Assembly (NCBI GenBank): GCA_017501545.1
Contig: JAFVWS010000023.1
Span: 31,967 to 95,966 of the forward strand
From: Clostridia bacterium
GTDB lineage: Bacteria; Bacillota; Clostridia; Oscillospirales; CAG-272
DNA length: 64,000 bases
Direction: 5' to 3'
Made by a program: the position numbers and the translations under genes. Of this stretch, positions 5,048 to 64,000 are shown in pieces (the first letter of the stretch is position 1; the number at the start of each line of letters is the position of its first letter). Below the pieces are notes generated by a model. It had not been told where the DNA came from and did not search any database. It saw nothing but the letters and a program-made list of their open reading frames with translations.

Positions 5048-5050
5048 ATT

Positions 5051-5447
5051 CAAGCCGCAGGCTTGGTATGTAATCACGCGTCAGCGTGTATGGTATCGCC
5101 GTAGGCGCATGGAATCATCAAAGGTGCATTTTCTGCGGCTTGATTCCATACCGTCTTGCAACGGATTCCATACAATGTTTTGCATTGATTCCATACACGC
5201 CTCACGGCGTGATGTGGCGCACGAGTTCAAGTCCATACGAAAACTCCCCGAAATATCTTTTTTGTTTATCCAAGCCGCAGGCTTGGTATATCATCACGAC
5301 GCAGTCGTGAATATCATCAGCCCCTTTGGGGCTGTATCTCATCACGCGCCTGCGTGCATCTTGCCTGCGGCTTGATGTTATACAACACTATATGTGTTGA
5401 TGATATGCAATTCCTATGGAATTGATGATATGCAAGGCTACGCCTTG
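5051..5447. repeat. Two tandem multi-hairpin units: variable short palindromes separated by constant linkers
   Basis: Both units start with CAAGCCGCAGGCTTG (5051, 5271) and contain its complement CTGCGGCTTG (5133, 5365). At least 13 hairpins of 4-7 bp, most with CA...TG ends. Linkers are GATTCCATAC (unit 1) and GATGATATG (unit 2), with their reverse complements in the first half of each unit. Confidence 0.7.
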
Positions 5448-5518
5448 ATTTATTTACAAAAGCATGGTATAATAAAGCCATCGATAAATAAGAATTTGAT
5501 AAGCGGAGGTAATTTATT

Positions 5519-6223
5519 ATGAAAAAAGCTTTGGTGCTTGTTCTGACATTTGTATTAGTTTTAGGATTAAGCAGTTGTGCACAGAAGGAATACGAATTAC
5601 CGTGGGATCACTTCTGCTATTCTGCTAACGACGGGAGTGTCATAGAGCTTTCCTCAGAACAAAAAGAGGTTATCATCGACTTGCTTAACAATGGTAAATG
5701 GTACGGAGAAATCGCAAAATGCACCTCCGACGTAAAGTTTGCAACGAAACGTCAAAGCATCGGTTATTGCATAAGTGAAGGAATCTTTAACGATTTCACT
5801 CAAAACAAATCTTTGCGACTTTCAGATGAAGATAGAAGTACAATTAATGGATATTTGGTAAAACAGGCGACAAAGTTGATCGATATTGAAAAATATAAGG
5901 CTCTTAAGATAGAGGATACGACATCTATTGAAGTGGTATACGATTATATTAAGGGCGAATTTACTACTTACGAATTTGTCATTGATAACCAAGAAACAAT
6001 CGAAGATATCATGACAGAAATAGTAAATATGGAACTTAAGAAGTATCCCGAAGATCAGGATATAGATTTTTATCAACGTTGGATTACCGTTAAACAAGGT
6101 GATAATGAATATCTCATCAACTTAGCATACGTTTCTGACAACTACGGAAACAGTTATTTGTGTCAATCTCAAACAGTGTGTGAAATTATTGAAAAATACA
6201 TTGAAGATAACTTGATTCAATAA
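5519..6223 (+). CDS. Hypothetical lipoprotein
   Basis: Signal peptide with lipobox MKKALVLVLTFVLVLGLSSC. RBS GGAGG upstream. No recognisable catalytic motif. Confidence 0.6.
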   Translation: MKKALVLVLTFVLVLGLSSCAQKEYELPWDHFCYSANDGSVIELSSEQKEVIIDLLNNGKWYGEIAKCTSDVKFATKRQSIGYCISEGIFNDFTQNKSLRLSDEDRSTINGYLVKQATKLIDIEKYKALKIEDTTSIEVVYDYIKGEFTTYEFVIDNQETIEDIMTEIVNMELKKYPEDQDIDFYQRWITVKQGDNEYLINLAYVSDNYGNSYLCQSQTVCEIIEKYIEDNLIQ

Positions 6224-13785: not shown

Positions 13786-16700
13786 CTATTCTGTGTAGTC
13801 CCAGACCTTTGTGCCTCTAAAGGTATTTGACCAAGATGGTGACCAGCCACTTCCCGTAGAGGAAACACCAAGATACAAGGTGCCCGTTATATCAGAAAAC
13901 GCGTTTGATCCAATGTAGGTAATAGATTTAGGCACGTAAATTTCCTCGATGCCGTAGCATCCACTAAAGGCACTATCTCCTATGGTTTTCACCCCACTTG
14001 GTAGCTTAACCGAGGTTATTTTTCCCATATTAGTGAATGAATATGCACCTACCTCTGTAAGCTTACTTCCCTCCTCAAAGGTGATTTTTGCGATATTTGC
14101 CTTCTCGCTTACAGGGGCGAAGAAAAGTCCCGCTGGAATTGTAGTGGTGCCCGCTTTAATATTAACCTCAACACCTGTGGTATTGTGTCCTAAGAATGCA
14201 AACGCATTTGTGTTATATTCAATAGGATGCCAAGCGTTGACATAGTAGTCAATTGTAAAGCTTCCCTTAGCGTAAAAATCTATTTTCTTTACCGCTGTAC
14301 AGCCATAAAATGCATGTGTGCCAAGCTCACCACTCAAGCCATATGGCAACGTAATAAGCTCAAGATACGTGCAATTTTTGAATGCGTTTTCGCCTATTGT
14401 AATGCTTACCGTGGAGCTTGTATCCTCAAGCTCTATTCTTTTTAGCTTAGGAGCTTTCGGTGCTTCCTCACTTGTTGATGGATAGAATAGATTTGATGGA
14501 ATCACGCTTGCTTTTTTTCCAATAATAAGCGTTATTCCCTCGCCATCTGTGCCTGCATTTGCAAAAACTAAGTTGTCGCTATCAAGCGTGCTTACATTTG
14601 CGCCATAGGAAATTGTATTTAGGTAGGTACAGCTTTCAAACGCGCTATTGCCTATTTTTGTCACCTTTGAAGGAAGTGAAACAGTCCTTAAGCCTGAGCC
14701 ACTAAATGCGCCCTCTCCGATTTCAATATCCGAGGTGGTGGTAGTAGAGAAATATACGTTTTCAACAAGTGGTAAGCCCTTAAACGCTTCCTTTCCAACT
14801 GAAAGAAGTGTGTTTTCTTGTGCAAGTGCAAAGCTATTACAGCCTCTGAACGCATATTCGCCCACTATCATTTCCTTTAGGTCAATACTCTCTAAGCTTA
14901 AGCAGCCGTCAAAGGCAGTGTCACCTATTGTTACCGTGGTTTTATAAAGCGATGTAAGGCTTTTAAGTGAGGTACAGCCACTAAATGCACTGCTTCCTAT
15001 TTGCGTAATTCTATTAAACGATATGCTTTGAAGCCCTGTACAGTACATAAACGACTGCTCACCAACTGAGCTAACCGTGCCAAGGGAGATGCTTGTTAGT
15101 GCGCTACATCCATAAAACGTTGCATTGCCTATGGTTGCTATTCTTGAAAGATTTTCAATAGAAGTTAGTGATTTACAGTTATAAAATGCTAGTGAGCCAA
15201 GCTTTGTTGTGGCTGGCTGTAATGTCACCCTTTCAAGCGCGCTACACCCATTAAACACCGAGTCCTCGATTGAGGTTACGCGAGTTTGATTAAGTGAAAT
15301 TTCAGTTAGCGACTTGCAGTTTGCAAATGCGCCCTGCTTTATGCTTGAAAGAGATGAGTCAAGCGTTAAATTCGTTAGGTGTGCGCAGTTATTAAATGCG
15401 CCCTCGGAAATTTCCGTAACACCCGTCAAAATAGCGCTTTCTACTTTAGTGTTTGCAAAGGCATAATTGCCAAGTGAGGACACTGCGCCGTTTGTGTCAA
15501 CTGAGGTAATGTTAGAATTTCTAAACACACCCGTGCCCATTTCGTACGCTGTGCCATTATACGTCTTTGGTAGTATAACGTCCGTTTTCTCGCCTATATA
15601 GTCAACAAGATAAATTTTTGAGTCCGTATTTAAAAAGCCAAAGCCGTTTTCGTCATAGACAATTCCATTTTCCTCTTCGGCCGTGTGTATCAGCCTTGCG
15701 TGGGCGTAAAGATAGCTATTTGCAATATCGTCCTCGTCAGCTGCGCTTAGGTTATAAACCAGAGAAAGCTTAGTGCAGTTAAAAAACGAGAGCTGAGCAA
15801 GCGTTTTTACGTTTGATGGGATTTTAACCATAAGAAGGTTTTCACAGCCTGAAAATGCACTTGTGCCTATAGACTTTAGTGTGCTTGGGAACACGGCGGT
15901 TTTAATTCCTGCGCCCTCAAACGCATTTGGACCAATATAAACCAAGCCCTCGTTAAACTCAACGTCTCTTAAGCTCGTACAGCCATAAAATGCGTATTTT
16001 GAAATTTCTGTTACGCTACTTGGTAGCTTTAAGCTGGTAATTTTTTCACAGCCGTAAAAGGCAGCGAATGGAATTACCTCAGCGCCACTTGATATCGCTA
16101 TTTCGCCATTTATTTCCTCGCCATTTAAGTATAGCTTAGCGCCTGTTTCATAAAGTGGATTTGATCGAACATCAGTAAACTCAATACCACACCACGCATC
16201 AACGTCACTTATTATAACCTTGTCTATCTTGGTTTCAAAAAATGCGTATGATGCAATGTTAGTTAGCCCACTTGGAACGTAAAGCTCCTCAAGGCAGTTA
16301 ATCTTTTGGAACGCGTGATAACCGAATTCAGTTACGCTGTTTGGTATATTTAAGCTCTTTAGCGAGTTACAGTTATAAAACGCATTGCCTGGTATTGTTA
16401 AAATTCCCTCACTGGGCAAAGTGATTTTTTCAATAGATGTGCAGTTTGAAAATGCACCATATCTAAGCGTGCCACCTAATACTGTTACCTCTTTTACAGA
16501 GGCAGGAATTCCAAATCGACCGCCACTTGTTGAGCCATCATAGTATTGATACGAGCCAGTTGAGCTTTCGCCGAAAATAAATCCAAATACAGTTTCTGGT
16601 GTTTGTTCTGCTGGATTTGTCATTCCTCCAACAAATGGAATTGTAAGCTTTTCAAGACCTGTACAGCCACGAAGCGCGCCGTCACCTATCATGCTAACGC

Positions 16701-18606
16701 CTTCTTCTATTACAATTTCCTTAACCATTGTCATATTTTGAAGTGCGCCGAATTGCAAAATCACGCCACGAACAGTGATTTTTTCAAGTCCTGATGGCAC
16801 GTACGCCTTAATGCTCGAGCTACTTGAATAAAATTGTGTAACAAGCGTGCCTCCGTCATACTGGTCATCGCCAAAAATATGACCAAGAAGCGCTTCCCTT
16901 CCGCTTGCACTGCTTCCCTCTCCGACAAATGGAGCATTAATCTCAGTAATGCCAGCACAGCCACTAAACGCGCCCTTGCCAACGCTTGCTACGCTATTTG
17001 GTAGGTAAAGCGTTTTTATCCCTGTACAGCCCTTAAATGCGTAGCCCTCAATGGTTGTTACGTCTTCTGAAAGCGTAATTTGCGCACTTGAATTTAAAAA
17101 TGCGTTTTCTCTAATTGTGATAATCTTTTCAGGTACTGAAAATTCTTTTCCAAGGTAGCCGGCAAATGCGTATGGGGTGATTTCGGTAAGCGAGGTGTTC
17201 GTCCACGAAATCTGTGCCAAGACTCCAAAAAATGCGTTTTGCCCTATTTGACCAACGCTTGCCGGAATGGTTAGCTTTTCTATTTTGTCACAGCCATAAA
17301 AGGCAAAGTCGTTTATTTTTATAACGCCATCTTTAATCTCTGTGTCAATTTTGTTTGAACCGATAAGTAGCGCGCCCTCGCTTTTATCAATAAGCGCACC
17401 GCTTGCACATTCATATCTTTCGTTTGCCTCATCTACCTCAATTCCCTCAAGCACACAGCCAGAAAAAGCATCGCTTGCTATTTCTACAACAGTGCTTGGT
17501 ATCTTAACCGAGGTAATTTTTGTATCCTTAAATGCGCCTGATAAAATTTTGGTTACAGGCTTGCCAAGGCTATTTTCGGGAACGTGTGCCTCAGTCATAT
17601 CCTTGTTTTCTACACCTGAAAGGTAGTATTCAGTATAGTCATTTGATAAAACGTATATAAACCCGTCATTGGCAGTTAACTGATATCCACACTCTGTGCA
17701 TTGATTTTTAATATCAAAGCTATGTGGCTCCTCGGGGGTTATCAAATCACAGCCACAGCTTGCCTTGTGCCAGTGGCACTCCCTGTCAAAGGTAAAGTCA
17801 TCACTATACTCGTGATCTACCATTTCAATAGGAGAATATACCCCGTGATAGCACACAGTACAGTATTGATAATATTTTCCCTCGCTTGTACAGGTTGGTA
17901 TTGTATGTACTCTTTTTTCAGTAAGCGTGTGCTCTGTCTTTTCAATTAGGTCATCACAGCCACAGATATAGCCATACCAGTGGTGCGTGTCATCACTTGA
18001 TAAGGAGGTTGAAATTTCGTGAGGAAGAATCGCAATAGGCTCAGTATAATAAGCGCCACAGTAATCTGTTGTGCAGGTATAGGTCATTACACCCTCTTTT
18101 GTGCAGGTAGGAGGTGTTGTAACCACGCCCTCATCCCACTCGTGTGGGTATTTTTCAATTTCACAGCCACAGGTATAGTCGCGCCAGTGACTTTCCTCGT
18201 CACTTAACCAAACCGTAATGTCAAATGAGTGCCACTTTGCATAAAGAGTTTCACTTCTGACATAATTACACACGGTGCAGTAATATTCTGCCATACCATT
18301 TTCCTTGCAGGTTGGCTCCTTTATAACTCGTTTTTCAATAGTGTGGTCTGCCTTGTCCTTAGCAAAGTTTGTAGGATGGCAGATGGTGCCCCTATAGTGA
18401 AACTCGTCATTGTAGGTGTACTCTTCACTAAAAACATGCTCGTGCTTGATATATTTTCCACACACGTCACATTGTGCATTATAGTCGCTATCTACGTGCT
18501 CATCACAGGTGTCATTAGTGCCACCACCCAAGCCACCAAGTCCTGTGCAAGCAGAAAATAAAAGAAGTGTTAAAAGTATTATAACTAAAAAAGCTATCTT
18601 TTTCAT
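13786..18606 (-). CDS. Giant surface lipoprotein: N-terminal Cys/His-rich repeat modules followed by BspA-type leucine-rich repeats
   Basis: Lipobox LLLFSAC. About five repeats of H..W....CGC...H...PTCT.EG..Y.C..C. Then dozens of ~23-aa repeats with the A/GAF..C..L..I.IP..V..IG pattern. Confidence 0.8.
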   Translation of the reverse strand: MKKIAFLVIILLTLLLFSACTGLGGLGGGTNDTCDEHVDSDYNAQCDVCGKYIKHEHVFSEEYTYNDEFHYRGTICHPTNFAKDKADHTIEKRVIKEPTCKENGMAEYYCTVCNYVRSETLYAKWHSFDITVWLSDEESHWRDYTCGCEIEKYPHEWDEGVVTTPPTCTKEGVMTYTCTTDYCGAYYTEPIAILPHEISTSLSSDDTHHWYGYICGCDDLIEKTEHTLTEKRVHTIPTCTSEGKYYQYCTVCYHGVYSPIEMVDHEYSDDFTFDRECHWHKASCGCDLITPEEPHSFDIKNQCTECGYQLTANDGFIYVLSNDYTEYYLSGVENKDMTEAHVPENSLGKPVTKILSGAFKDTKITSVKIPSTVVEIASDAFSGCVLEGIEVDEANERYECASGALIDKSEGALLIGSNKIDTEIKDGVIKINDFAFYGCDKIEKLTIPASVGQIGQNAFFGVLAQISWTNTSLTEITPYAFAGYLGKEFSVPEKIITIRENAFLNSSAQITLSEDVTTIEGYAFKGCTGIKTLYLPNSVASVGKGAFSGCAGITEINAPFVGEGSSASGREALLGHIFGDDQYDGGTLVTQFYSSSSSIKAYVPSGLEKITVRGVILQFGALQNMTMVKEIVIEEGVSMIGDGALRGCTGLEKLTIPFVGGMTNPAEQTPETVFGFIFGESSTGSYQYYDGSTSGGRFGIPASVKEVTVLGGTLRYGAFSNCTSIEKITLPSEGILTIPGNAFYNCNSLKSLNIPNSVTEFGYHAFQKINCLEELYVPSGLTNIASYAFFETKIDKVIISDVDAWCGIEFTDVRSNPLYETGAKLYLNGEEINGEIAISSGAEVIPFAAFYGCEKITSLKLPSSVTEISKYAFYGCTSLRDVEFNEGLVYIGPNAFEGAGIKTAVFPSTLKSIGTSAFSGCENLLMVKIPSNVKTLAQLSFFNCTKLSLVYNLSAADEDDIANSYLYAHARLIHTAEEENGIVYDENGFGFLNTDSKIYLVDYIGEKTDVILPKTYNGTAYEMGTGVFRNSNITSVDTNGAVSSLGNYAFANTKVESAILTGVTEISEGAFNNCAHLTNLTLDSSLSSIKQGAFANCKSLTEISLNQTRVTSIEDSVFNGCSALERVTLQPATTKLGSLAFYNCKSLTSIENLSRIATIGNATFYGCSALTSISLGTVSSVGEQSFMYCTGLQSISFNRITQIGSSAFSGCTSLKSLTSLYKTTVTIGDTAFDGCLSLESIDLKEMIVGEYAFRGCNSFALAQENTLLSVGKEAFKGLPLVENVYFSTTTTSDIEIGEGAFSGSGLRTVSLPSKVTKIGNSAFESCTYLNTISYGANVSTLDSDNLVFANAGTDGEGITLIIGKKASVIPSNLFYPSTSEEAPKAPKLKRIELEDTSSTVSITIGENAFKNCTYLELITLPYGLSGELGTHAFYGCTAVKKIDFYAKGSFTIDYYVNAWHPIEYNTNAFAFLGHNTTGVEVNIKAGTTTIPAGLFFAPVSEKANIAKITFEEGSKLTEVGAYSFTNMGKITSVKLPSGVKTIGDSAFSGCYGIEEIYVPKSITYIGSNAFSDITGTLYLGVSSTGSGWSPSWSNTFRGTKVWDYTE

Positions 18607-55214: not shown

Positions 55215-56297
55215 ATGGACTTTAAATATAAAAAGGGAATGGGCATTGGTGGTTGGCTAACCAACTACAAAAGGTTTAATGTTTTGCCAAACGACAAGCG
55301 TCTTGAATTGACAATTGGCGACTATGAGCATTTTGAGTCCTATATAACCGAGTGGGACATAATAAATATCAAAAATATGGGTATGGACCATATACGCTTA
55401 GGCTTTGACCAAATTGTTTTGGAGGAAGCGCCCTTTGTATATCGTGAGCATACAATGGCGCTGCTTGAGAATTTTGTTTCCCTTTGCCAAAAGCACGGCC
55501 TTGGCATTATTTTAAATTTACATAAATGCATAGGCAACTACTGTGATATTGAGGAAAATGTTACCCTGTTTGATAGCGAGGAATTAAAATCGCGCTTTAT
55601 AGGGCTATGGCTTGAGCTTGAAAATCGATTTAAGGACAACGAAAATGTAATTTTTGAGCTACTTAACGAGGTGAGAGATGTTGAGCCAGATTTATGGAAC
55701 GACCTTGCCGAAAAAGCAATAAAAGCCATAAGGCGTGTCAATAATTCAAGAAAAATTATAGTTGGACCTGTGTGCTGGAACAACCCAAACAAGCTTGATA
55801 AATTAAGAATTTTCGATGACGAAAACGTAATTTACACCTTCCACGTTTACGACCCAAGCGAATTTACACACCAGCGTAGTGTTTTACACTGGAAGCACCT
55901 ATATTACAACAGAAAAATGGAATACCCAGGCGATATTAAAAAATACCGCGAGTTTTATAAGGTAGTGCATAACAACCCAAACGCATACCCCCACATTGAT
56001 AGAATGGATATAAGGTATATGCGTGAAATTTTTAACCCTGTGGCTGAATTTAAAAGAGCGAACCCAGATAAAATCTTATGGTGTGGAGAGTTTGGCACTA
56101 TTCGCCACGCAGACAAAAGTAGCCGTGAAAGCTGGATGAGGGATGTTATCACCCTTTTAAAGGAAAACGACGTCCCATACTGCGTTTGGAACTATCTTAG
56201 CACCCCAAATGACGGCAACCGCTTTAGCTTAGTTGATGATGACACAAGAGAAATATTAAGCAAAAATATGCTAAATATAATAAACGGAAATATATAA
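55215..56297 (+). CDS. GH5 (cellulase-family) glycoside hydrolase
   Basis: GMDHIRL, acid/base FELLNEV, nucleophile region WCGEFG. Confidence 0.85.
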   Translation: MDFKYKKGMGIGGWLTNYKRFNVLPNDKRLELTIGDYEHFESYITEWDIINIKNMGMDHIRLGFDQIVLEEAPFVYREHTMALLENFVSLCQKHGLGIILNLHKCIGNYCDIEENVTLFDSEELKSRFIGLWLELENRFKDNENVIFELLNEVRDVEPDLWNDLAEKAIKAIRRVNNSRKIIVGPVCWNNPNKLDKLRIFDDENVIYTFHVYDPSEFTHQRSVLHWKHLYYNRKMEYPGDIKKYREFYKVVHNNPNAYPHIDRMDIRYMREIFNPVAEFKRANPDKILWCGEFGTIRHADKSSRESWMRDVITLLKENDVPYCVWNYLSTPNDGNRFSLVDDDTREILSKNMLNIINGNI

Positions 56298-56327
56298 AAA
56301 AGGGCAGAGAATTCTGCCCCCTTTTTG
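56297..56327 (+). terminator. Rho-independent terminator
   Basis: GGGCAGAGAATTCTGCCC palindrome followed by CCTTTTT. Confidence 0.75.
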
Positions 56328-56447: not shown

Positions 56448-56780
56448 TTATGTTAATTCAACCAACGAGCCTCCATGATGAATTGCTATTTTTATAGCAT
56501 CGAAATACTCATCGTTGTAGACATGTTTTAATCTCTTAAGAATTTTGATTAAAAGGTCCACATCCTTTTTATTTTCATCGTATATCTTGTCAAGCCCAAT
56601 TATTTCTATGTTTAAATTTTTGTTGCTCAATAAAAGATCTACCATGCAATCCCAAAAAGCTGACCAATTACGACCATAATGGTCGGGAAAGTCAAATTCT
56701 TTCGCTATAATTGAATGAAAATATCGCCAGTCCTTCATGCTTGTAAAATCAAGTATATACTTCTCTTTATACTCATACAT
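56448..56780 (-). CDS. Barstar-family ribonuclease inhibitor (immunity protein)
   Basis: FHSIIAKEFDFPDHYGRNWSAFWDCMVDL matches the barstar pattern (F.FP.YYG.N.DA..DCL). Immediately downstream of the barnase-domain gene. Confidence 0.8.
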   Translation of the reverse strand: MYEYKEKYILDFTSMKDWRYFHSIIAKEFDFPDHYGRNWSAFWDCMVDLLLSNKNLNIEIIGLDKIYDENKKDVDLLIKILKRLKHVYNDEYFDAIKIAIHHGGSLVELT

Positions 56781-56791
56781 GTTATGCCTCC

Positions 56792-57376
56792 TTATGCTGT
56801 AATTTCATAAAATGTTTGATAATGGTCATAGGTTACAAAAATCAACCCGTCGTTAGAATAAATTATCCTTTGGCGATTTCGGAATCCTCCATTGTAATTT
56901 ATATCTGCCTCATACCATACTCGCCCTGATACAGAAGGAAGCTTGTATTCATCATTATTATACAAATCTCCACCGATCATTTTGTTTGGACACACCTTAG
57001 CCAAATTTCTTTTTTTGGAAATCCAGCCTTGTTCCACTGCTTGCTTTTTTGTGATATAACAATCTGGCAAAATTCTGTTATAAAACAAAGAAAAATCTGC
57101 TCCGTCTTTTCCAGCGCTTGTTGCCTTACCCGCCTGCTTTGTTCGCATACGAACCCATTTACACCTGCAATTTGTATGTATATTCACCGCCACTTCTGTT
57201 CGCAAGAGCAAAACAGACGATGCTTCAACTATTTTCCCATGATTATCAATACATTTTTGACAGGTATGGAGTGACAATTCAGACATCCAATTTGCCCATT
57301 TGATACTGTTTCCCGCAAGCCTTCTTTCTTGGAGCAAATCATCGACTACAGTTACCAACTTATTTTCTTCCATCAT
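56792..57376 (-). CDS. Truncated MuF (SPP1 gp7-like head morphogenesis) domain fused to a barnase-type ribonuclease toxin
   Basis: MuF C-terminal motif HTCQKCIDNHGKIV...HTNCRCKW. The C-terminus YITKKQAVEQGWISKKRNLAKVCPNKMIGGDLYNNDEYKLPSVSGRVWYEADINYNGGFRNRQRIIYSNDGLIFVTYDHYQTFYEI is near-collinear with Bacillus barnase. Confidence 0.85.
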   Translation of the reverse strand: MMEENKLVTVVDDLLQERRLAGNSIKWANWMSELSLHTCQKCIDNHGKIVEASSVLLLRTEVAVNIHTNCRCKWVRMRTKQAGKATSAGKDGADFSLFYNRILPDCYITKKQAVEQGWISKKRNLAKVCPNKMIGGDLYNNDEYKLPSVSGRVWYEADINYNGGFRNRQRIIYSNDGLIFVTYDHYQTFYEITA

Positions 57377-57385
57377 TTCTCCTTT

Positions 57386-57414
57386 ATTATACTTTCTTTC
57401 TCTCAAATTGTCAA
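57386..57414 (-). promoter_or_regulatory. Consensus sigma-A promoter directly abutting the toxin start codon
   Basis: Minus strand TTGACA (57414-57409), 17 nt, TATAAT (57391-57386). Only 9 nt lie between the -10 box and ATG 57376. Confidence 0.5.
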
Positions 57415-57614
57415 TTTCTTTAATTATATATTAGCGTATAAAAACCGGTACCAAACGGAACTCTTTTTCTTTTATGAGCTTAGAGCAAAAAAACAGGGCA
57501 GAGAATGGGCTAAGCCCAAAGCTCATTACATTCGTTTCGGGGAACCCCTACACAAGCAGAAAGAGAGAACAAATCGGTTGTTCGCCGAAATGTCCTCTCT
57601 TTTTCTGTTGGTTG

Positions 57615-57815
57615 AATGAAATCGTGGCTATACCACGATGAAATCTTCGCTTTACTCAGATGAAATCCAAGGCGTTGCCTTGGATGAAATCAAATCCGTC
57701 TGTTATAACCCTGCGAAGCAGGATTTCATCGCGAAAGCGATTTCATCCACCATAGGTGGATTTCACCCGTCGAAGACGGATTTGACTGCGTGATACTCCG
57801 TTAAGAGTATCACGC
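57615..57815. repeat. Multi-hairpin array with constant GATGAAATC / GATTTCATC linkers
   Basis: Hairpins at 57621-57639, 57665-57685, 57710-57722, 57728-57741, 57745-57761, 57767-57779 and 57788-57815. Linker GATGAAATC occurs 4 times in the left half. Its reverse complement GATTTCATC (and variants) occurs 4 times in the right half. Confidence 0.7.
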
Positions 57816-57831
57816 TATTCTGCCCTTTATT

Positions 57832-58452
57832 TTATAAATTTTCGTACGCCTTTAGCCACTGGGTTTTAATAAATTCGTGGCCGGCTGGTGTTGGATGCAC
57901 GCCGTCTGCAAGCCAGTAGCTGTTTTCTGCCTTCTTTGCAAGCTCGTCAAAGCCATTTTGTAGCTCAACAAATGGTAAGCTATATTTTTCGGCAATTTTT
58001 CTTGCCATCTCGGCACGCTTTTTAGTTTCGGTCTTGAAAAACTCCCAATGCTCGGTAGTTGAACACGCCTCTAAAACAAATGGCTCTAAAATTATAATTT
58101 TGATATTAGGAAGCGCCTCCTTAACCTCCTCAATAAGCATTGAGTATATCTTAAAGAACTTGTCGGCATCCACTCCATTTGGGCTATCTCCTATTTCGTG
58201 CCAAACGTCATTTACACCGATAAGAATACTCATTAAATCTGGGGAATAGTTAATAATATCGCGCTTAATGCGTGCGTATAGGTCAACTACACGGTTGCCA
58301 CTAATGCCCTTATTTACAAACGTGTGCTTGCCAGGCTCTAAATATCCAAGATATGCTGACACTAAATGTGCGTAGCCTCTGCCAAGATTAGCATCATTGT
58401 TCCAGTCTCTGCCACAGTCTGTAATTGAATCACCTTGAAATAAAATTTTCAT
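57832..58452 (-). CDS. SGNH/GDSL hydrolase family protein
   Basis: ILFQGDSITD block I, GINDVWH block, DGVHPT block V. Confidence 0.85.
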   Translation of the reverse strand: MKILFQGDSITDCGRDWNNDANLGRGYAHLVSAYLGYLEPGKHTFVNKGISGNRVVDLYARIKRDIINYSPDLMSILIGVNDVWHEIGDSPNGVDADKFFKIYSMLIEEVKEALPNIKIIILEPFVLEACSTTEHWEFFKTETKKRAEMARKIAEKYSLPFVELQNGFDELAKKAENSYWLADGVHPTPAGHEFIKTQWLKAYENL

Positions 58453-58478: not shown

Positions 58479-59075
58479 CTATTTTATATCTATCAAAACC
58501 GCTCTACAGGGCGCGCCATCTCCACCACCCAAATTTAGTGGAGCAGAGCTTAAAAAATAGACACCCTCTGCCACATTTTTTAGTCTTATTCCCTCAAGCA
58601 AGGCAACTCCGGCTCCCAAAAGTGCAAGATGCACAGCCATAGGGGAGTCTTTTGGTCCAACCGTTTGTGGCTCGTTTCCAAGCAGTAAAATTCCTGCCTT
58701 AACAAACGCCTCCGTTGCCTCAAGGGACACCTCAACCTCGCCCTTTACTAATATTCTTTTTGCTGACTCCTCGCTTTTCTCCCTTGCTTTTTTAATAATA
58801 TTTTCAGCATCACTATACGACACCACGCCTTGATGCTCAGCCACATAAGCCATTCCCACAAAAGCCTCAAGCCCCATTTTGTCAACCGTCTTGCCATCAC
58901 TAATAAAATGAAACGGCGCATCTATATGTGTGCCATTGTGCGCACACATACTAAGCTTGGATAGGTTGCACACGTCTCCGTTTTCAATTTGGCTAATCAT
59001 CTCTTTTTTAGGCACAGGGTCGCCAGGAAACACATCAGAGGAAAACACCTCTTGTGAAATATCGTAAATTTTCAT
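58479..59075 (-). CDS. Cyclase-family protein (kynurenine formamidase-like)
   Basis: HNGTHIDAPFHF metal-binding motif. MKIYDISQ start. Confidence 0.8.
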   Translation of the reverse strand: MKIYDISQEVFSSDVFPGDPVPKKEMISQIENGDVCNLSKLSMCAHNGTHIDAPFHFISDGKTVDKMGLEAFVGMAYVAEHQGVVSYSDAENIIKKAREKSEESAKRILVKGEVEVSLEATEAFVKAGILLLGNEPQTVGPKDSPMAVHLALLGAGVALLEGIRLKNVAEGVYFLSSAPLNLGGGDGAPCRAVLIDIK

Positions 59076-59142
59076 TATTTTCTCCACTTGAATAGTATAT
59101 CACTTAGATTATACTACAACTATTGGCGCTTTTCAATGAAAT

Positions 59143-59178
59143 AAAATAAAAAAGGGAACAAATGTTTGTTCCCTTTAA
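59143..59178 (-). terminator. Terminator closing the microcompartment operon
   Basis: Minus strand AGGGAACA-aacatt-TGTTCCCT followed by TTTTTT. Confidence 0.7.
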
Positions 59179-59180
59179 TT

Positions 59181-59459
59181 TTAGAGTAGGTAGTATGGTA
59201 GGTCGTCGCCTATTGCAAGATGCACAAAGCCTTGCTTTTTTGGTGTTGCTGTCTTTTTTGTTGGCTTCTTTGCTGTTTTCTTTGGGGCCTCCTTAGCTGG
59301 CGCTTCTACTACTGTTATAGGCTCTGTTACAGGCACTTCAGCCTTTGGTGGTTCCTCTGTCGTTGCAATAGCGCTGTTTTCCATATCAGGCGCTGTGCTT
59401 TTTACGTTGGAATAGCCACTATTGGAAACTCTTTTAATCGCATTTTTACCTATTGGCAT
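59181..59459 (-). CDS. Small disordered basic protein, candidate partner/adaptor of the ParA-like ATPase
   Basis: AAGGAGG RBS 9 nt upstream. The start overlaps the ParA-like stop by 14 nt. Basic N-terminus MPIGKNAIKRV, P/A/E/K-rich low-complexity core, conserved-looking C-terminus GFVHLAIGDDLPYYLL. Confidence 0.55.
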   Translation of the reverse strand: MPIGKNAIKRVSNSGYSNVKSTAPDMENSAIATTEEPPKAEVPVTEPITVVEAPAKEAPKKTAKKPTKKTATPKKQGFVHLAIGDDLPYYLL

Positions 59460-60237
59460 ATTCTACTACCTCCTTTGCAAGACTTCTATACTCAATAGCG
59501 CTTCTTGAATACTTTTTGTAAGCAACAACGGGCTTGCTATTGTCCTGTGACCATTCAATTGCACTATCAACCTTAACGTAGGTGTCAAAAACCCTTACGT
59601 CCTCCGACTCACGAAGGGATTTTAGAGTTTCCTTGAAGTAATTCTTTCTCTCGTCTGCCTTAGTCACCATAATTCCCATGATTTCAAGGCGAGGTGCCAT
59701 TTCTCTTACCTTGCCGATAAAATCAAACATATTTGCAAGGCCGAAAAGTCCCCAAGGGCTTGCCTCAACAGGGATAATAACATAGTCAGAGGCGCACATT
59801 ACGTTCATAACCCAGCCACCAAGCGTTGGGGGAGAGTCAATTAATATGTAGTCATAATAGCCACGCGCCTTAACCGGCTCAAGACACTTTTTAAGTATAA
59901 ACTCTCTTTGCCACTTTGTAAAAAGGTCAAACTCAATTGAGCTCATAAGTGAGGTTGATGGTACAATATCAAGCCCCTCATATTCTGTTGGCACAATAAA
60001 GTCAGAAAGGTCCCTTTCCTCCTTTAGGGCAGTATATATATTTTTTCCGTTGCTTGCGTACTCTAAAACCTTTTCCTCGTCAAAGAAGGAAAGTGTTAAA
60101 TTTATCTGCATATCGCCATCTATAAGTAGTACCTTTTTGCCCATCATAGAAAGCGCACAGCCGATATTTGAGCAGGTTGTGGTTTTTCCACTTCCGCCCT
60201 TGTTATTCGCAAACGCGATTACCTGAGTTTTGCTCAT
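59446..60237 (-). CDS. ParA/MinD-family ATPase encoded inside the microcompartment operon
   Basis: Deviant Walker A NNKGGSGKTT, LLIDGDMQ, ILIDSPPTLG. 4-nt overlap with the upstream eutP-like gene. Confidence 0.88.
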   Translation of the reverse strand: MSKTQVIAFANNKGGSGKTTTCSNIGCALSMMGKKVLLIDGDMQINLTLSFFDEEKVLEYASNGKNIYTALKEERDLSDFIVPTEYEGLDIVPSTSLMSSIEFDLFTKWQREFILKKCLEPVKARGYYDYILIDSPPTLGGWVMNVMCASDYVIIPVEASPWGLFGLANMFDFIGKVREMAPRLEIMGIMVTKADERKNYFKETLKSLRESEDVRVFDTYVKVDSAIEWSQDNSKPVVAYKKYSRSAIEYRSLAKEVVEYANR

Positions 60238-60689
60238 TTTCGCATAGCCTCCAATTCTTCTTCGTCATCTGCAAGGAATTCTATCAATTTATCAAGTCCC
60301 TCTCCTGTATAAGCACTGACAGGGAATATTTTCTTACAGCCTGCAAGCCGGAGCCATCTTTCAACCCTTTCCGGGTTGGCATCAGGCTTGTCAATTCCTG
60401 TGATAATTCCGACAACCTCACGATTTACAAGGCTTGTAATACAGGGTGAGAAAATAGAGTAGGGCTCATTTGCCGAAAGGACAAGCCCAACAACGTCCGC
60501 CTCGTACGCATAAAGCGCCAGTGCGCCACTTGTCTGCCTAAGCTCTGTATATTCGCCAGGGGTGTCTATTATCGTATCAAGATAATTTATGTACTGCGTT
60601 TTATAATAGTGAATATCCTCACCATTAAGCGCTTGTGTCAGGGTAGTTTTTCCTGCCGCAACCCTTCCAATTAAAATAATTTTTTTCAT
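60234..60689 (-). CDS. eutP: EutP/PduV-family small GTPase
   Basis: MKKIILIGRVAAGKTTLTQAL...IDTPGEY. Size and motifs match EutP/PduV. Confidence 0.85.
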   Translation of the reverse strand: MKKIILIGRVAAGKTTLTQALNGEDIHYYKTQYINYLDTIIDTPGEYTELRQTSGALALYAYEADVVGLVLSANEPYSIFSPCITSLVNREVVGIITGIDKPDANPERVERWLRLAGCKKIFPVSAYTGEGLDKLIEFLADDEEELEAMRK

Positions 60690-61048
60690 TACGTTTTAGT
60701 TATTTCACAGCATACATAGGAAAGCTTTGTGGTGAAATACTCACGTATAGCGCTAAAGGCTGATTCCACGCTTGAAACGCTTCCCGAAATAATTAATGTT
60801 CCTGTAAATCTATCAACAAAGCCAATCTCAGCGCCCGAGGACTTTATAGAAATATCGGCTGCAATCACAGCACTTTCCGCAGGTGAAACGGTCAAAACTC
60901 CAATTGCGCTTCTTGTATAATCCGTCTTTGGGTCAAGTCCAAGCTTTGTAAAAAGCACGTCGTCTGGATTTGCAATTATATGGCAAAGAGTTATCTGCTT
61001 ACCAGGTACTAACTCCTGCACAATTCTCATATTTTCTTTAAGCTCCAT
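60689..61048 (-). CDS. pduU: Circularly permuted BMC-domain shell protein (PduU/EutS type)
   Basis: VQELVPGKQITLCHIIANP...AIGVLTVSPAESAVIAADI..GAEIGFVDRFTGTLIISG is collinear with PduU/EutS. Confidence 0.88.
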   Translation of the reverse strand: MELKENMRIVQELVPGKQITLCHIIANPDDVLFTKLGLDPKTDYTRSAIGVLTVSPAESAVIAADISIKSSGAEIGFVDRFTGTLIISGSVSSVESAFSAIREYFTTKLSYVCCEITKT

Positions 61049-61050
61049 TG

Positions 61051-61842
61051 TTAGCCTCCGATTTTACATTTAAGCCCCGATTCCTCGGCGACTGATAAAA
61101 GATATTCCATCTTTTCATTAGATGGTGGCTCTATCTCCTTTAGGGCATAATTTCTGCCAAGCCCCTTATACTTGTCTGAGCCAAGACGGTGATAGGGAAG
61201 TAAGTGATGCTCACAAACGCCCTTTAGTGTTTTTGCAAAGCTTGAAATAGCTCTTATTTCCTCTGGTGTATCGTTAAAGGTAGGTATTACTGGCGTTCTT
61301 ATTATAAGCTCAACACCACTTTGGGCTATCCTTTTTGCGTTTTCAAGAATTAATTCGTTACCTACCCCTGTATATTCCTTATGCTTTTCTGAGTCCATAT
61401 GCTTTATATCCATAAGATACAGGTCAAGATAAGGAAGAAGCTTTTCTATTTCCGAGAAATTTAGTGACGACGCCGACTCAATAGCGGTATGTAGCCCCTC
61501 ACTCTTGCACGCCCTTAGTAGCTCGGCTGCAAAGTCAGCTTGGCATAAAACCTCACCACCAGAAAGGGTAACTCCACCACCGCTTCTTTTGTAATAAGGC
61601 TTGTCGGCTAAAATCTCTGGCATAATGTCCCAAACACTAACGTCCCTGCCAACAATTTTTTCCTTGTCCTTTTCAATTATCGTTTCAATTTCTCTATTTT
61701 GAGATTCGGGATTACAGCACCAAGCGCACCTTAGCCGACAGCCCTTGAAAAAGACTATTGTTCTTATTCCTGGCCCGTCATGTATTGAAAAGCGCTGAAT
61801 ATTAAATATTCTGCCCTTTATTTCGTTTGGCACGGTAATCAC
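61051..61842 (-). CDS. Glycyl-radical enzyme activating enzyme (radical SAM), short form without ferredoxin-like insert
   Basis: GRIFNIQRFSIHDGPGIRTIVFFKGCRLRCAWCCNPE (CX3CX2C). No further CX2CX2CX3C motifs. Confidence 0.88.
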   Translation of the reverse strand: MITVPNEIKGRIFNIQRFSIHDGPGIRTIVFFKGCRLRCAWCCNPESQNREIETIIEKDKEKIVGRDVSVWDIMPEILADKPYYKRSGGGVTLSGGEVLCQADFAAELLRACKSEGLHTAIESASSLNFSEIEKLLPYLDLYLMDIKHMDSEKHKEYTGVGNELILENAKRIAQSGVELIIRTPVIPTFNDTPEEIRAISSFAKTLKGVCEHHLLPYHRLGSDKYKGLGRNYALKEIEPPSNEKMEYLLSVAEESGLKCKIGG

Positions 61843-61929
61843 CTCCTTGTTTGTTTTGTTTGCGCCTTGAAAATGCTCTCTTGGATTTTTTGTGGAATGT
61901 GTTTGTGCCTTAATGTGACACCCTTCCCT

Positions 61930-64000
61930 TTAAAAGCCCTGTTCGGTTCTGTTTATAATGTCGTCCTGTAATGAACGGGAAAGCGTTGTAAAGAGCGCGC
62001 TATAGCCAGCAACTCTTACTACGAGTGTTTTATATTTTTCTGGGTTCTTTTGCGCGTCAAGCAACGTTTCCTTTGTTACAACGTTAAACTGCACGTGCAT
62101 ACCCTTTTGGTCAAAGTATGAGCGAATTAATGCAACAAACTTAGAAAGACCGCTCATTCCAGCTAAGGCTGATGGATGGAACTTTTGGTTAAGCAGTGTT
62201 CCGTTTGATGCAACGCCCTGCTCAAGCTTTGCAACCGAGTTTGCTGTTGCTGTTGGTCCCTTTGTATCTCTGCCCGAGGCTGGACCTATACCATCTGCAA
62301 GTGGAGTATAGGCAAGACGTCCGTCAGGGGTTGCGCCTGTCGATGCACCAAGTGGCACGTTTGCTGAAACTGGATAAAGTCCCGCTTGGAAAATACCACC
62401 ACGTGGGTTTTTATATTTTTCAACCTCTTTAGTATAGGTATTTGCAACGTCACGTGCAAACATATCGACGTCGTAAATATCGTTTCCATACTTAGGGGCT
62501 TCCTCGTCTATTAGACGCTTAATTTCCTTATATCTTGCTTTTTGCTCATAGCTAAGAGATGTTTGGTTTGTCACCTCATCGTAAATTGTGCGAATTGCGC
62601 CTTCATTTACGTTTATGCCTTGACGTACAAGCTCTGTCGCTATCTCAGTGGTTAATTTTTCTGCCGCCACACCATGCACGCCATAGCCAAAGTTTGCTCT
62701 CATTGCCTCCTTAAGCTCAGAAAGGGTAAATCTGCCCTCTTCAAATACAAGCTTTTTAATGGCAATAAGACCGTCTGTGTTGTTTGCAATACCAAAGCCC
62801 TGTGGACCTGTGAAATTGTATATGGCGCCACCCTCTTGAAGTGATTTTCCTCTGCCTATACAGTCCTCAACCATACAGGACTGGAAGGGAAGTGGGCACC
62901 TTGTCGCGTGTGCCATATCTATTGCGTTATTTGCATTTACAAGAAGCTTTATCATATAGCTTTGCTGAGTCTTATATGCTGAGTATAGCTCCTCGAAGGT
63001 TTTCATACCCGAAACGTCGCCTGTGTCTGGACCTATTTTCTTGCCCTTATCGTAGCCGTTTGAGAAAACAAGCTCCATTGGGCGACACATATTAAAGAAC
63101 GCTGCATCGTGCCAGCCGTCAGTTTTTCCAGCCTTTTGTGGCTCAACGCAACCGATAATGCAATAATCTCTTGCATCCTCAAGGGTAAGTCCTCTTGCCA
63201 TTATAGATGGAATGATTATTTCGTCGTTGTAGTATGCTGGCAAGCCTGTTCCAAGCCTTGTAAGCGCCGCTGCCTTGATTAATAAATCCTCTGGTGAGCC
63301 ATTCCATACTCTAATAGAGATAGAAGGCTGTGGAAGTGGAACGTGCATAGCTGCCTCAATGCACATATATGAAAGGTCGTTTGTCGCATCCATGCCGTGA
63401 ATATCCTGTCCACCTACAATAAGGTTTTGGAACATTCCATAGCCTGCAAAGCCATCAGCCGACGCTTGGTCTCTTACCTTGTTTATATCGTTGAATTTTA
63501 CCCAAATGCAGTCAAGCAGCTCTTGCGCCCTTTCGCGTGTGATTTTGCCACTGTCAATATCCTTTTTATAATATGGGTACATATATTGGTCAAAGCGACC
63601 TGGGGAAATAGAGTGTCCGCTTGACTCAACCTGTAAAAGAAGCTGAATAAACCAAAACGCTTGGCAAGCCTCGTAAAAGCTTGTTGCGCCAAACTCTGGC
63701 ACTCTTACACAGTTTTTAGAAATTTGCTCAAGCTCGCGCTTTCTTTCAGGATTTTGCTCCTTTTGTGCAAGCTCCCTTGCAAGTGCGCTATATCTGCGCG
63801 CGTATTCAATTACTGCCTCACAGCTTTCAATTACTGCGTAAAGGAAGTTGCTTCTTGAAACGTAGTCGCTATCCGATACGTCAAGCTTAGATAGTGCAGT
63901 TTCTGCCTCGGCAATAATGCCTCTGTAACCATTTTTTAAAACCTTACCATAATCTACGCAAACGTGACCGATTCCGTTGTAGAAATAGTTACCTGGTGTG
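61930..64000 (-). CDS. Glycyl radical enzyme (PFL2/CutC/diol-dehydratase class); the 5' end lies outside the window
   Basis: Glycyl radical motif VRVAGYSALF, active-site GCVEP. The frame stays open upstream of the track's GTG at 63702 (...ELARELAQKEQNPERKRELEQISKNCVRVPEF) to the window edge. Confidence 0.9.
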   Translation of the reverse strand, partial: TPGNYFYNGIGHVCVDYGKVLKNGYRGIIAEAETALSKLDVSDSDYVSRSNFLYAVIESCEAVIEYARRYSALARELAQKEQNPERKRELEQISKNCVRVPEFGATSFYEACQAFWFIQLLLQVESSGHSISPGRFDQYMYPYYKKDIDSGKITRERAQELLDCIWVKFNDINKVRDQASADGFAGYGMFQNLIVGGQDIHGMDATNDLSYMCIEAAMHVPLPQPSISIRVWNGSPEDLLIKAAALTRLGTGLPAYYNDEIIIPSIMARGLTLEDARDYCIIGCVEPQKAGKTDGWHDAAFFNMCRPMELVFSNGYDKGKKIGPDTGDVSGMKTFEELYSAYKTQQSYMIKLLVNANNAIDMAHATRCPLPFQSCMVEDCIGRGKSLQEGGAIYNFTGPQGFGIANNTDGLIAIKKLVFEEGRFTLSELKEAMRANFGYGVHGVAAEKLTTEIATELVRQGINVNEGAIRTIYDEVTNQTSLSYEQKARYKEIKRLIDEEAPKYGNDIYDVDMFARDVANTYTKEVEKYKNPRGGIFQAGLYPVSANVPLGASTGATPDGRLAYTPLADGIGPASGRDTKGPTATANSVAKLEQGVASNGTLLNQKFHPSALAGMSGLSKFVALIRSYFDQKGMHVQFNVVTKETLLDAQKNPEKYKTLVVRVAGYSALFTTLSRSLQDDIINRTEQGF

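Follow-up and report, generated by a model that had tools for sequence, protein, structure and literature searches.

The array of short hairpins at positions 57615-57815 of the window, by which we mean the whole 64,000-nucleotide stretch of Clostridia DNA that was analysed, is evidently the core of a non-coding insertion of about 310 nt (57507-57816), which lies in the loop of the intrinsic terminator of an SGNH-hydrolase gene. One half of the modular hairpin-array elements of this family is, judging from sequence and predicted pairing, the Rfam Gut-1 RNA motif. The locus thus belongs to a catalogued family, and what is new is the description of that family, namely the bipartite layout, the long-range helix P1, the residence in terminators, the link to tRNA genes, the presence/absence polymorphism, and the taxonomic placement. 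The best explanation we can offer, in which we place about even confidence, is that the element would be an insertion-prone, self-folding unit of the MITE/BIME kind, carried in 3' trailers and acting as a single-stranded nucleic acid.

Organization of the array and its insert

The intergenic space that holds the array measures 425 nt (57407-57831), instead of the 200-bp non-coding stretch given in the initial annotation, and it is flanked by genes for a barnase-like ribonuclease and barstar on one side and by the SGNH-hydrolase gene on the other, all on the minus strand. The hairpins listed in that annotation are all present, namely ATCGTGG/CCACGAT (57621-57639), ATCCAAGGC/GCCTTGGAT (57665-57685), CCTGC/GCAGG (57710-57722), ATCGC/GCGAT (57728-57741), ATCCACC/GGTGGAT (57745-57761), CCGTC/GACGG (57767-57779) and GCGTGATACTC/GAGTATCACGC (57788-57815), and so are the reverse-complementary linkers or variants of the right half, found as two copies of GATTTCATC (57722 and 57739), GATTTCACC (57759) and GATTTGAC (57779). 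The four linker copies claimed for the left half come down to three exact copies of GATGAAATC (57637, 57659 and 57683), the fourth, at 57615, being the variant AATGAAATC. The proposed long-range pairing is real and longer than had been claimed, as TCAAATCCGTCT (57690-57701) is complementary to AGACGGATTTGA (57774-57785) over 12 bp (inverted repeat I4). This helix, P1, is present in the minimum-free-energy (MFE) fold of the minus strand and in the centroid fold of the plus strand. The initial annotation had not recognised that the array interrupts the loop of a terminator.

Read along the minus strand, the locus begins after the SGNH stop codon (57832-57834) with the 5' arm of the split terminator (57817-57833; the plus strand reads ATTCTGCCC and then a T-rich tail), which was delimited by comparison with empty sites. 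It is followed by the terminal long hairpin GCGTGATACTC-cgttaa-GAGTATCACGC (57788-57815, inverted repeat I7), which reads TAGCGTGAT...ATCACGCTA, has 11 bp, or 13 bp counting the flanking T/A, and would form one terminal inverted repeat of the composite. The half with GATTTCATC-type linkers on the plus strand (57710-57786; hairpins D, C, B and A) is on the minus strand the Gut-1 domain, closed by P1 through the partner strand 57774-57785. Beyond it lies the half with plus-strand GATGAAATC linkers (57615-57691), which on the minus, or sense, strand is the distal half with GAUUUCAUC linkers. This half holds the two hairpins at 57621-57639 and 57665-57685 and a degenerate unit, TTCGCTTTACTCA (57646-57658), which is not a hairpin; its first hairpin covaries (helix 1 of the W alignment, see below), and its plus strand matches Gut-1 weakly (19.3 bits). 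The element extends left to 57507 and takes in a further hairpin, AAAGAGAGAAC...GTCCTCTCTTT (57560-57602, inverted repeat I1), which resembles a bidirectional terminator on both strands and marks a module boundary. This hairpin is kept in W-type loci with enough aligned flank except L021 and L030, its loop varies between strains, and in L125 it is the central hairpin common to two full elements with different linker words that stand tail to tail. Positions 57507-57559 hold, on the minus strand, a degenerate remnant module with a GGGCTAAGCCC hairpin and a GGGGAACCCC hairpin; it can be aligned to the inner region of two full-length composites, those of L044 and L122, and to a portion of the GTGAAGTT-type element of L125. 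The locus closes with the other arm of the terminator (57487-57506; AAAAAAACAGGGCAGAGAAT on the plus strand), which on the minus strand is the 3' arm with the U-tract and pairs with 57817-57825 in the MFE and centroid folds. An AT dinucleotide stands at both insert junctions (57505-57506 and 57817-57818).

The array is far from what chance would place in the window. Exact GATGAAATC/GATTTCATC words occur five times on the two strands of the 64 kb against 0.74 expected, all of them within 110 nt, and none of 100 shuffles reached five; a k-mer scan finds the array layout in the window only here and at 5051-5447. The fold z-scores of the array are -8.2 for the plus and -8.7 for the minus strand. 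A "ladder" fold in which left linkers pair with right linkers was rejected at -75.7 versus -90.4 for the P1 fold, a deficit of 15 kcal/mol, so that the complementarity of the linkers is unexplained by the most stable secondary structure. A coding reading of the 51-codon open reading frame at 57638-57793 fails as well, because spacer lengths differ between relatives and the frame has no conservation among them. Tandem weak terminators, each a hairpin with a U-rich linker, do not fit the other linker words of the family, and a CRISPR array, whose repeats would measure 23-50 nt and whose spacers would be non-palindromic and alike in length, does not fit 9-nt "repeats", palindromic "spacers" of 7-17 nt, an orientation switch in mid-array and neighbours none of which is cas-like.

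Terminators as insertion sites

Four relatives with SGNH proteins about 90% identical to that of the window (L168, L169, L223 and L224) carry an intact, uninterrupted terminator, AAAGGGCAGAATTCTCTGCCCTTTT, at the position of the insert, which is the presence/absence pattern of a MITE. In these relatives a bidirectional terminator, AAAGGGCAGAATTCTCTGCCCTTTTTT, directly follows the stop codon and is followed in turn by a convergent cellulase gene. The filled site in the window reads on the minus strand AAAGGGCAGAAT (57817-57833 in plus coordinates), then the element, then ATTCTCTGCCCTGTTTTTTT (57487-57506), and the left arm matches the intact terminator of the same four relatives. By comparison of filled and empty sites, the window copy is a lineage-specific insertion in the terminator loop. 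At least six other genomes, L044, L051, L096, L098, L122 and L118, carry a composite of 340-430 nt in which the sequence beyond the long hairpin returns as its reverse complement past the far end, and A-tracts and T-tracts are present, indicating that an unrelated terminator has been split in each such genome; the split is less clear in L028 and L112. The element starts no more than a few nucleotides from the U-tract of the upstream terminator or within a terminator loop. Folds of 57466-57840 pair both terminator arms around the insert, with z-scores of -12.6 for RNA of the minus strand and -9.2 for DNA of the plus strand, and in these predicted folds the compaction of the insert would let the separated arms re-pair before the U-tract.

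Composite elements are laid out as an imperfect 22-nt end (GGGTGATGTTCTTAGCGGAGAAT), a degenerate array, a AAAGAGAG hairpin, a W array, and the long hairpin. Of the six loci whose two ends were compared as inverted repeats, four have 17-19 matching positions out of 30, and the remaining two have 4 and 11. The long terminal hairpin was found solely at array boundaries beside half-terminators (12 loci), and the searched array neighbourhoods yielded neither an autonomous element with these ends nor a partner transposase. A long target-site duplication was considered and rejected, since the 9-nt ATTCTGCCC repeat 1.5 kb away belongs to another copy of the entire terminator, which stands intact behind the barstar gene (56296-56326). 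No direct repeats of at least 8 nt were found at other loci, and the only clean candidate for a target duplication is that of 2 nt (AT) at one locus, the present one, where an empty site could be compared.

The element also follows transcription. Of 112 arrays among the matches listed, 26 have a tRNA gene no more than 400 nt off, and 24 of these 26 show the order tRNA, terminator, element on the Gut-1 strand, with at least ten tRNA species represented; Gut-1 matches beside a tRNA are on the same strand as the tRNA. In the window, arrays 1a and 1b of the first locus (5051-5447) follow tRNA-Tyr on the plus strand and array 2, the one at 57615-57815, lies on the minus strand behind the SGNH gene, so that the loci point in opposite directions and each agrees with the transcription around it. 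An account of orientation by replication direction was rejected, as the GC skew of the window tracks gene direction and no replication switch is seen between the two loci. Gene orientation around the arrays in general was taken from open reading frame calls, which are crude and suggestive only.

The genes around the arrays have little in common. The 139 flanking open reading frames contain 185 Pfam families, each in at most two of them, without enrichment of any family, and no transposase, Y1/HUH, cas-like, regulator, replication or partition gene among them is tied to the arrays. For an unbiased comparison of orthologues at the first locus, the 5519-6223 protein was traced in relatives, where its homologues have differing gene surroundings. 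No sigma-70-like promoter was found in or beside the array, the only one seen being that of the barnase gene (57414-57386), about 200 nt from it. A link to barnase-barstar was rejected, as the cassette is absent or elsewhere in relatives and occurs without the array in L223. A type III toxin-antitoxin RNA of the ToxI kind, weighed because a ribonuclease gene follows the array, was rejected on the same L223 cassette, on units that are not identical and on the presence of the element beside unrelated genes.

Gut-1, the wider family, and covariation

The minus strand of 57718-57788 matches the Gut-1 RNA motif (RF01706) over model positions 1-77 of 77 with 55.0 bits against a gathering score of 50, and it has the Gut-1 architecture of three hairpins joined by (G)UGAAAU words, with covariation in the stems. 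In the Gut-1 model the sole single-stranded linker is GAA, and the AU and GU of each (G)UGAAAU word are the feet of the hairpins. Apart from tRNAs no other Rfam family was found in the searched sequence, and the arrays at 5051-5447 have no Rfam match. The initial annotation had set a known repeat family against its reading of the arrays as a real element family; since the minus-strand right half is a Gut-1 member, this objection now holds in part, Gut-1 itself being without assigned function. Gut-1 was described from 43 human-gut metagenome sequences, all from uncultivated sources, with neither an organism nor a function, and was rated "RNA? Y" on covariation and listed among the probable non-coding RNAs (Weinberg et al. 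2010, Genome Biol 11:R31). Rfam types it as "Gene; sRNA", and our literature searches on Gut-1 and on hairpin arrays returned nothing past the 2010 paper. The minus-strand half in the window resembles Gut-1 in its three short variable hairpins, their A-U/U-G feet, the separating GAA and the gut habitat. It differs in that the Rfam model covers one half; the closing helix P1, the second half, and both the fourth and the terminal hairpins fall outside that model. The unmodelled flanks of the published seed contain a long hairpin, or a tRNA and a terminator, before the motif and a second half with reverse-complement words (GUGAUAUU ... AAUAUCAC) after it. A further difference is that the motif was published from uncultivated human-gut DNA only, whereas the elements described here sit inside or right after terminators in metagenome-assembled genomes (MAGs) of Clostridia from many animal guts.

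An exact-pattern scan of species-representative genomes returned at least 120 matching loci, a minority of which are unrelated coding or satellite tandem repeats. Most are in MAGs labelled Clostridia, Eubacteriales, Oscillospiraceae, Acutalibacteraceae, Christensenellaceae, Faecousia or Ruminococcus, from the guts of ruminants, horses and humans. The idea of a real element family with one grammar, whether of structured RNAs or of DNA modules recognised by a protein, as opposed to chance palindromes, is borne out by the many gut Clostridia MAGs among these loci and by covariation of the hairpins and of the long-range helix, and the conservation of that grammar in relatives by the 67 two-half elements that could be parsed among the matches listed. 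The parsed set falls into three groups, namely "W" elements, which are laid out as the window copy and about 91% identical to it in different genomic contexts, "T" elements, which directly adjoin a tRNA gene's terminator, and half elements, in which the Gut-1 half stands alone and is followed by a terminator. The grammar of the first array in the window also belongs to the family, as its GATTCCATAC type recurs in metagenomes. Other arrays use further linker words (GTGAAGTT, GTGATATT, CGTGATAT, TGATATACA, CTTGAAATG, TCGATATGC and more), so that at least ten words occur on one architecture. Linkers are 9 nt long and, in every two-half element seen, identical within the element and reverse-complementary between its halves. 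Between elements the words vary, mostly non-palindromic and without common composition, and the GAT-NNN-ATC skeleton that the initial annotation had seen in the linkers of both arrays is not general. In array 1b the pyrimidine-rich word comes first. Among the matches listed, a MAG carries one to four arrays of the GATGAAATC linker type; within a genome the copies are few, and neither their hairpins nor their linker words are the same. A phage origin was rejected, as no arrays were found in viral contigs and all 37 triple-linker matches in IMG/VR are coding or satellite tandem repeats. Most of the evidence on the family comes from MAGs and short contigs, and many metagenome contigs end inside arrays.

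In its predicted fold the whole element comprises the terminal long hairpin, a domain of three short hairpins enclosed by a P1 of 10-12 bp, a further series of hairpins, and one hairpin that resembles a terminator. Across elements, P1 consists of AAATCC with four variable nucleotides pairing with four variable nucleotides and GGATTT 65-70 nt apart. At the four variable positions Watson-Crick pairs occur in 43, 42, 40 and 32 of 44 distinct elements, and the variants GCCT/AGGC, GTCT/AGAC, GCCC/GGGC, GCCA/TGGC, GTCC/GGAC and ACCC/GGGT (at least six compensating) keep the helix. Arrays 1a and 1b carry an equivalent helix, CAAGCCGCAG/CTGCGGCTTG, which covaries in L182. A helix of such range requires a long single-stranded molecule. 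For the W hairpins in 19 relatives, 92.8% of cells are paired, six pairs change on both sides, and none of 500 shuffles reached the observed covariation score. In the more divergent T orthologues, stems are replaced wholesale with pairing kept, and the compensatory differences are larger. G-T or A-C oppositions make up 10 of about 1,750 stem pairs, with no strand asymmetry, and loops are mostly of 3 nt; Watson-Crick-only stems with such loops look more like DNA palindromes than like typical RNA.

Variation within the element is very uneven. In the W alignment the variability per site is 0.012 for linkers, 0.075 for stems and 0.38 for loops. Strains with identical SGNH genes and upstream DNA differ at 2-8 positions in the element, all in hairpin loops, versus 0 in more than 900 flanking nucleotides, as seen in a few strain contigs. 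Orthologous T loci differ per site by 0.009 in linkers, by 0.17/0.07/0.48 at codon positions 1/2/3 of the adjacent gene and by 0.345 in the rest of the element; these loci were retrieved by three exact words, so that a fair test is given by the unconditioned words alone, and any orthologue whose words have changed would escape the retrieval. Taken at face value, 0.009 would mean very strong selection on the words. Whole units also change, with a gain accompanied by a degenerate linker copy in L029, a small hairpin nested in a loop in L113 and the loss of a unit in L021. Together with the ten or more linker words and the loop-restricted hypervariability, these changes are open to a reading in which arrays grow unit by unit.

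Possible nature of the element

In the reading that we favour, the element would live as a non-autonomous unit in the 3' trailers of genes and tRNAs, and the acting nucleic acid would most likely be RNA made by read-through of the upstream gene. It would spread by an enzyme acting in trans, and the 9-nt linker word may be its specific recognition or pairing code. Its effect on the host may be mainly neutral, with termination preserved and the 3' end of the upstream RNA perhaps stabilised, and it would survive because its self-folding body lets the host terminator re-form. The likeness to the REP/BIME elements of enterobacteria is that these are palindromes outside genes, placed at the 3' ends of transcription units and grouped in clusters of alternating orientation with conserved linkers; REP-type palindromes can stabilise upstream mRNA, and IS1397-type elements insert into palindrome loops. 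REPs, however, have a conserved palindrome and a known enzyme, RAYT, whereas in the present arrays it is the linkers that are conserved, the palindromes being variable, and no enzyme was found; the arrays have no single conserved palindromic unit of the kind that REPs repeat throughout a genome, as hairpins differ within and between arrays. The likeness to MITEs lies in a size of 310-430 nt, the non-coding sequence, possible imperfect terminal inverted repeats in full-length copies, presence/absence polymorphism, an intergenic and 3'-UTR location and stable predicted RNA folds. In contrast to MITEs, no autonomous partner was found, the only duplication seen is of 2 nt at a single locus, each linker type has few copies, the orientation goes with transcription, and purifying selection on the linkers appears strong at loci that were retrieved by exact words. 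The searched array neighbourhoods hold neither a matching autonomous insertion sequence nor many near-identical copies. BOX, RUP and SPRITE of Streptococcus pneumoniae (PMC10969869) are likewise small, non-coding and modular, with a variable number of internal units, intergenic clustering, insertion into one another, stable predicted stem-loops and a link to terminator-like hairpins. Their copies share sequence within a genome, whereas here only the 9-nt linker and the terminal hairpins are common and the units vary and covary; a likeness in sequence would not be expected.

Several observations speak against the MITE/BIME-like reading. Copies are few and divergent in each genome, unlike those of a recently amplified MITE, and the window copy lacks the left terminal inverted-repeat part of its full-length relatives. 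The 2-nt duplication at one locus, the failure to find a transposase or an autonomous element with these ends, and the stems with almost no G-U and mostly 3-nt loops also count against it. A decaying selfish insert would not be expected to show near-invariant linkers at orthologous tRNA-linked loci, in a sample chosen by exact linker matches. We also entertain, as a slim chance, that the arrays could be a new class of transcription-oriented mobile elements that home to intrinsic terminators and grow unit by unit, with the linker copies as a programmable address.

The most serious competitor, though one to which we give distinctly less credence, is a structured RNA that serves the host as an sRNA or as a tRNA or mRNA trailer. 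It would display its linkers to a protein, as a sponge or scaffold, or for RNA-RNA pairing, and would reach new sites by duplication or transfer as genes do. The published rating of Gut-1 by Weinberg et al. (2010), the covariation of P1 and of the hairpins, and the strict orientation relative to tRNAs are all in its favour. So are linkers more conserved than second codon positions at orthologous loci, G-U equivalents in P1 that favour the Gut-1 strand 7 to 2, and two conserved U-G pairs at the hairpin feet (pairs 98/112 and 155/169). However, the conservation estimate is biased by the way the loci were retrieved, no promoter was found, and the element begins beside an upstream U-tract or within a terminator loop. 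Relatives whose protein is about 90% identical do not have the window copy, the stems contain hardly any G-U, and the linker words vary without common composition, which makes a single binding protein unlikely.

We consider it unlikely that the element is a single-stranded DNA element of the REP/RAYT kind, in which replication or transcription would let hairpins arise in the DNA and a hairpin-specific enzyme of the HUH/Y1 type would recognise them, the linker serving as guide or cleavage sequence, with no role for RNA. Stems that are essentially all Watson-Crick agree with this, as does the abundance of triloops and GNA/GNRA-type loops, including GCGAAGC and GCGAAAGC, both of which are exceptionally stable DNA mini-hairpins. 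The insertion into hairpin loops, the new small hairpins within loops (L113) and the confinement of near-identical-strain differences to loops fit equally. But no Y1/HUH gene was found among the open reading frames flanking any array, the palindromes are not conserved in sequence as those of REPs are, and the two window loci, oppositely oriented, follow transcription and not one replication direction. In addition, a P1 of 12 bp spanning 70 nt needs a long single-stranded stretch. An array of protein sites in duplex DNA, with 9-bp iteron-, partition- or operator-like words about two helical turns apart, first direct and then inverted, that may regulate an adjacent promoter, is very improbable: the word spacing of 17-24 bp, the nearly palindromic GATGAAATC (GAT-N3-ATC) and the last linker abutting the -35 box of the next gene in several loci (e.g., L029 and 5443-5472 of the window) would suit it, but compensatory palindromic spacers and a covarying P1 have no role in a duplex, words differ between elements and are mostly non-palindromic, no regulator, replication or partition gene is conserved nearby, and the barnase promoter is 200 nt off.

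For the family as a whole, these results mean that Gut-1, an orphan since 2010, is placed by this locus and its relatives in Clostridia of human and animal guts, and that its published model covers only one of the module's two halves, the module being closed by a long-range helix that covaries. Metagenome assemblies break at the arrays, which annotation can mistake for sRNA genes. The "sRNA" label of Gut-1 can now be turned into testable questions, namely whether the element is mobile and homes to terminators, which enzyme would move it, whether termination withstands a structured insert of 300 nt, and what reads the linker code.

Turnover of array units and variation among strains

The units of these arrays, that is, the hairpins between the 9-nt linkers, have been both gained and lost, as is seen in three of the retrieved relatives (contigs L113, L029 and L021). 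The loop of the first hairpin holds a nested small hairpin in L113, one additional hairpin followed by a degenerate copy of the 9-nt linker (GGATAAACT) is present in L029, and two units are absent between identical linkers in L021. Whole elements are also found joined to each other. At 5403-5802 of the relative's contig L125, a GTGAAGTT/AACTTCAC element is joined by its tail to the tail of a GATGAAATC element, with the AAAGAGAG hairpin common to both and, at the outer end, the same long hairpin as that which closes the array of the window (57788-57815).

Variation on a finer scale was observed when window positions 57560-57815 were compared with three strains (L007, L009 and L010). The SGNH hydrolase gene and its upstream DNA are identical, and every difference falls either in the central spacer or in a hairpin loop (TAT>TGT, TTTC>TTCC, TATAG>CGTAG, CGAACAA>CTACTGA and TTATAACAG>TTAAGCTCGG). 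These differences reflect either mutational hot spots in the loops or the exchange of alleles.

The arrays also leave a mark on metagenome assembly, as contigs L002-L005 and many of L011-L130 very often end within an array or at its edge, for example inside the long hairpin, 42-44 nt past the SGNH stop codon. Assemblies are broken by the arrays, and the probable reason is that different loci, or species that occur together, have identical stretches in common.

Tandem elements behind tRNA-Tyr and their neighbours

Two tandem elements (5049-5250 and 5269-5447) lie directly behind the terminator of tRNA-Tyr and share one architecture built from different words, GTATGGAATC/GATTCCATAC in one versus TATATCATC/GATGATATGC in the other. 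Both start with CAAGCCGCAGGCTTGG, whose partner CTGCGGCTTG is central in each (5133-5147 and 5365-5377). The first type was also found in eight metagenome contigs (L172, L176, L182, L189, L196, L210, L214 and L218). Between the tandem arrays, GTGGCGCACGAGTTCAAGTCCATAC (5214-5238) resembles a tRNA 3' half (T-arm), as does a stretch at about 1130-1180 of L087; ARAGORN made no tRNA call on GTGGCGCACGAGTTCAAGTCCATAC at 5214-5238, which may be a remnant of an old integration site.

One syntenic group encodes a protein of about 115 aa directly downstream of the tRNA-linked element (L111, 4020-4379, minus strand; orthologues in L023, L026, L029, L059, L090, L095, L099 and L100), which we take to resemble the four-helix-bundle/23S-rRNA-intervening-sequence protein family. 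Behind this gene, L111 carries an ORF of 168 aa and a large one that is helicase-like.

Two further repeats were noticed. AAATGCGT occurs in four direct copies within 200 nt (17035-17231), all of them in a large minus-strand ORF (13786-18606), and is probably a coding repeat, and GAGCGAGTGCAGATTGCTCCTCG... recurs between genes beside unrelated loci (L225, about 960-1010; L176, about 1-60) and may represent an additional repeat family of these genomes.

Surroundings of the SGNH hydrolase gene

Upstream of the SGNH gene, Pfam matches at 58479-64000 comprise a putative cyclase, a ParA/MinD-like ATPase, a PduV/EutP GTPase, a BMC shell protein, a radical-SAM activase and a glycyl-radical enzyme, the gene content of a microcompartment-type locus. 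A barnase-barstar cassette with a consensus promoter is located at 56448-57406, and the terminator of the SGNH gene recurs behind barstar in a second copy, this one intact (AAAAAAGGGCAGAGAATTCTGCCCCCTTTTT, 56296-56326). Comparison of relatives revealed that the cassette is missing from L168, L169 and L224 and is placed elsewhere in L223 (829-1713). Because of this second terminator copy and the absence or relocation of the cassette in relatives, the barnase-barstar cassette looks like a movable module between terminator copies.
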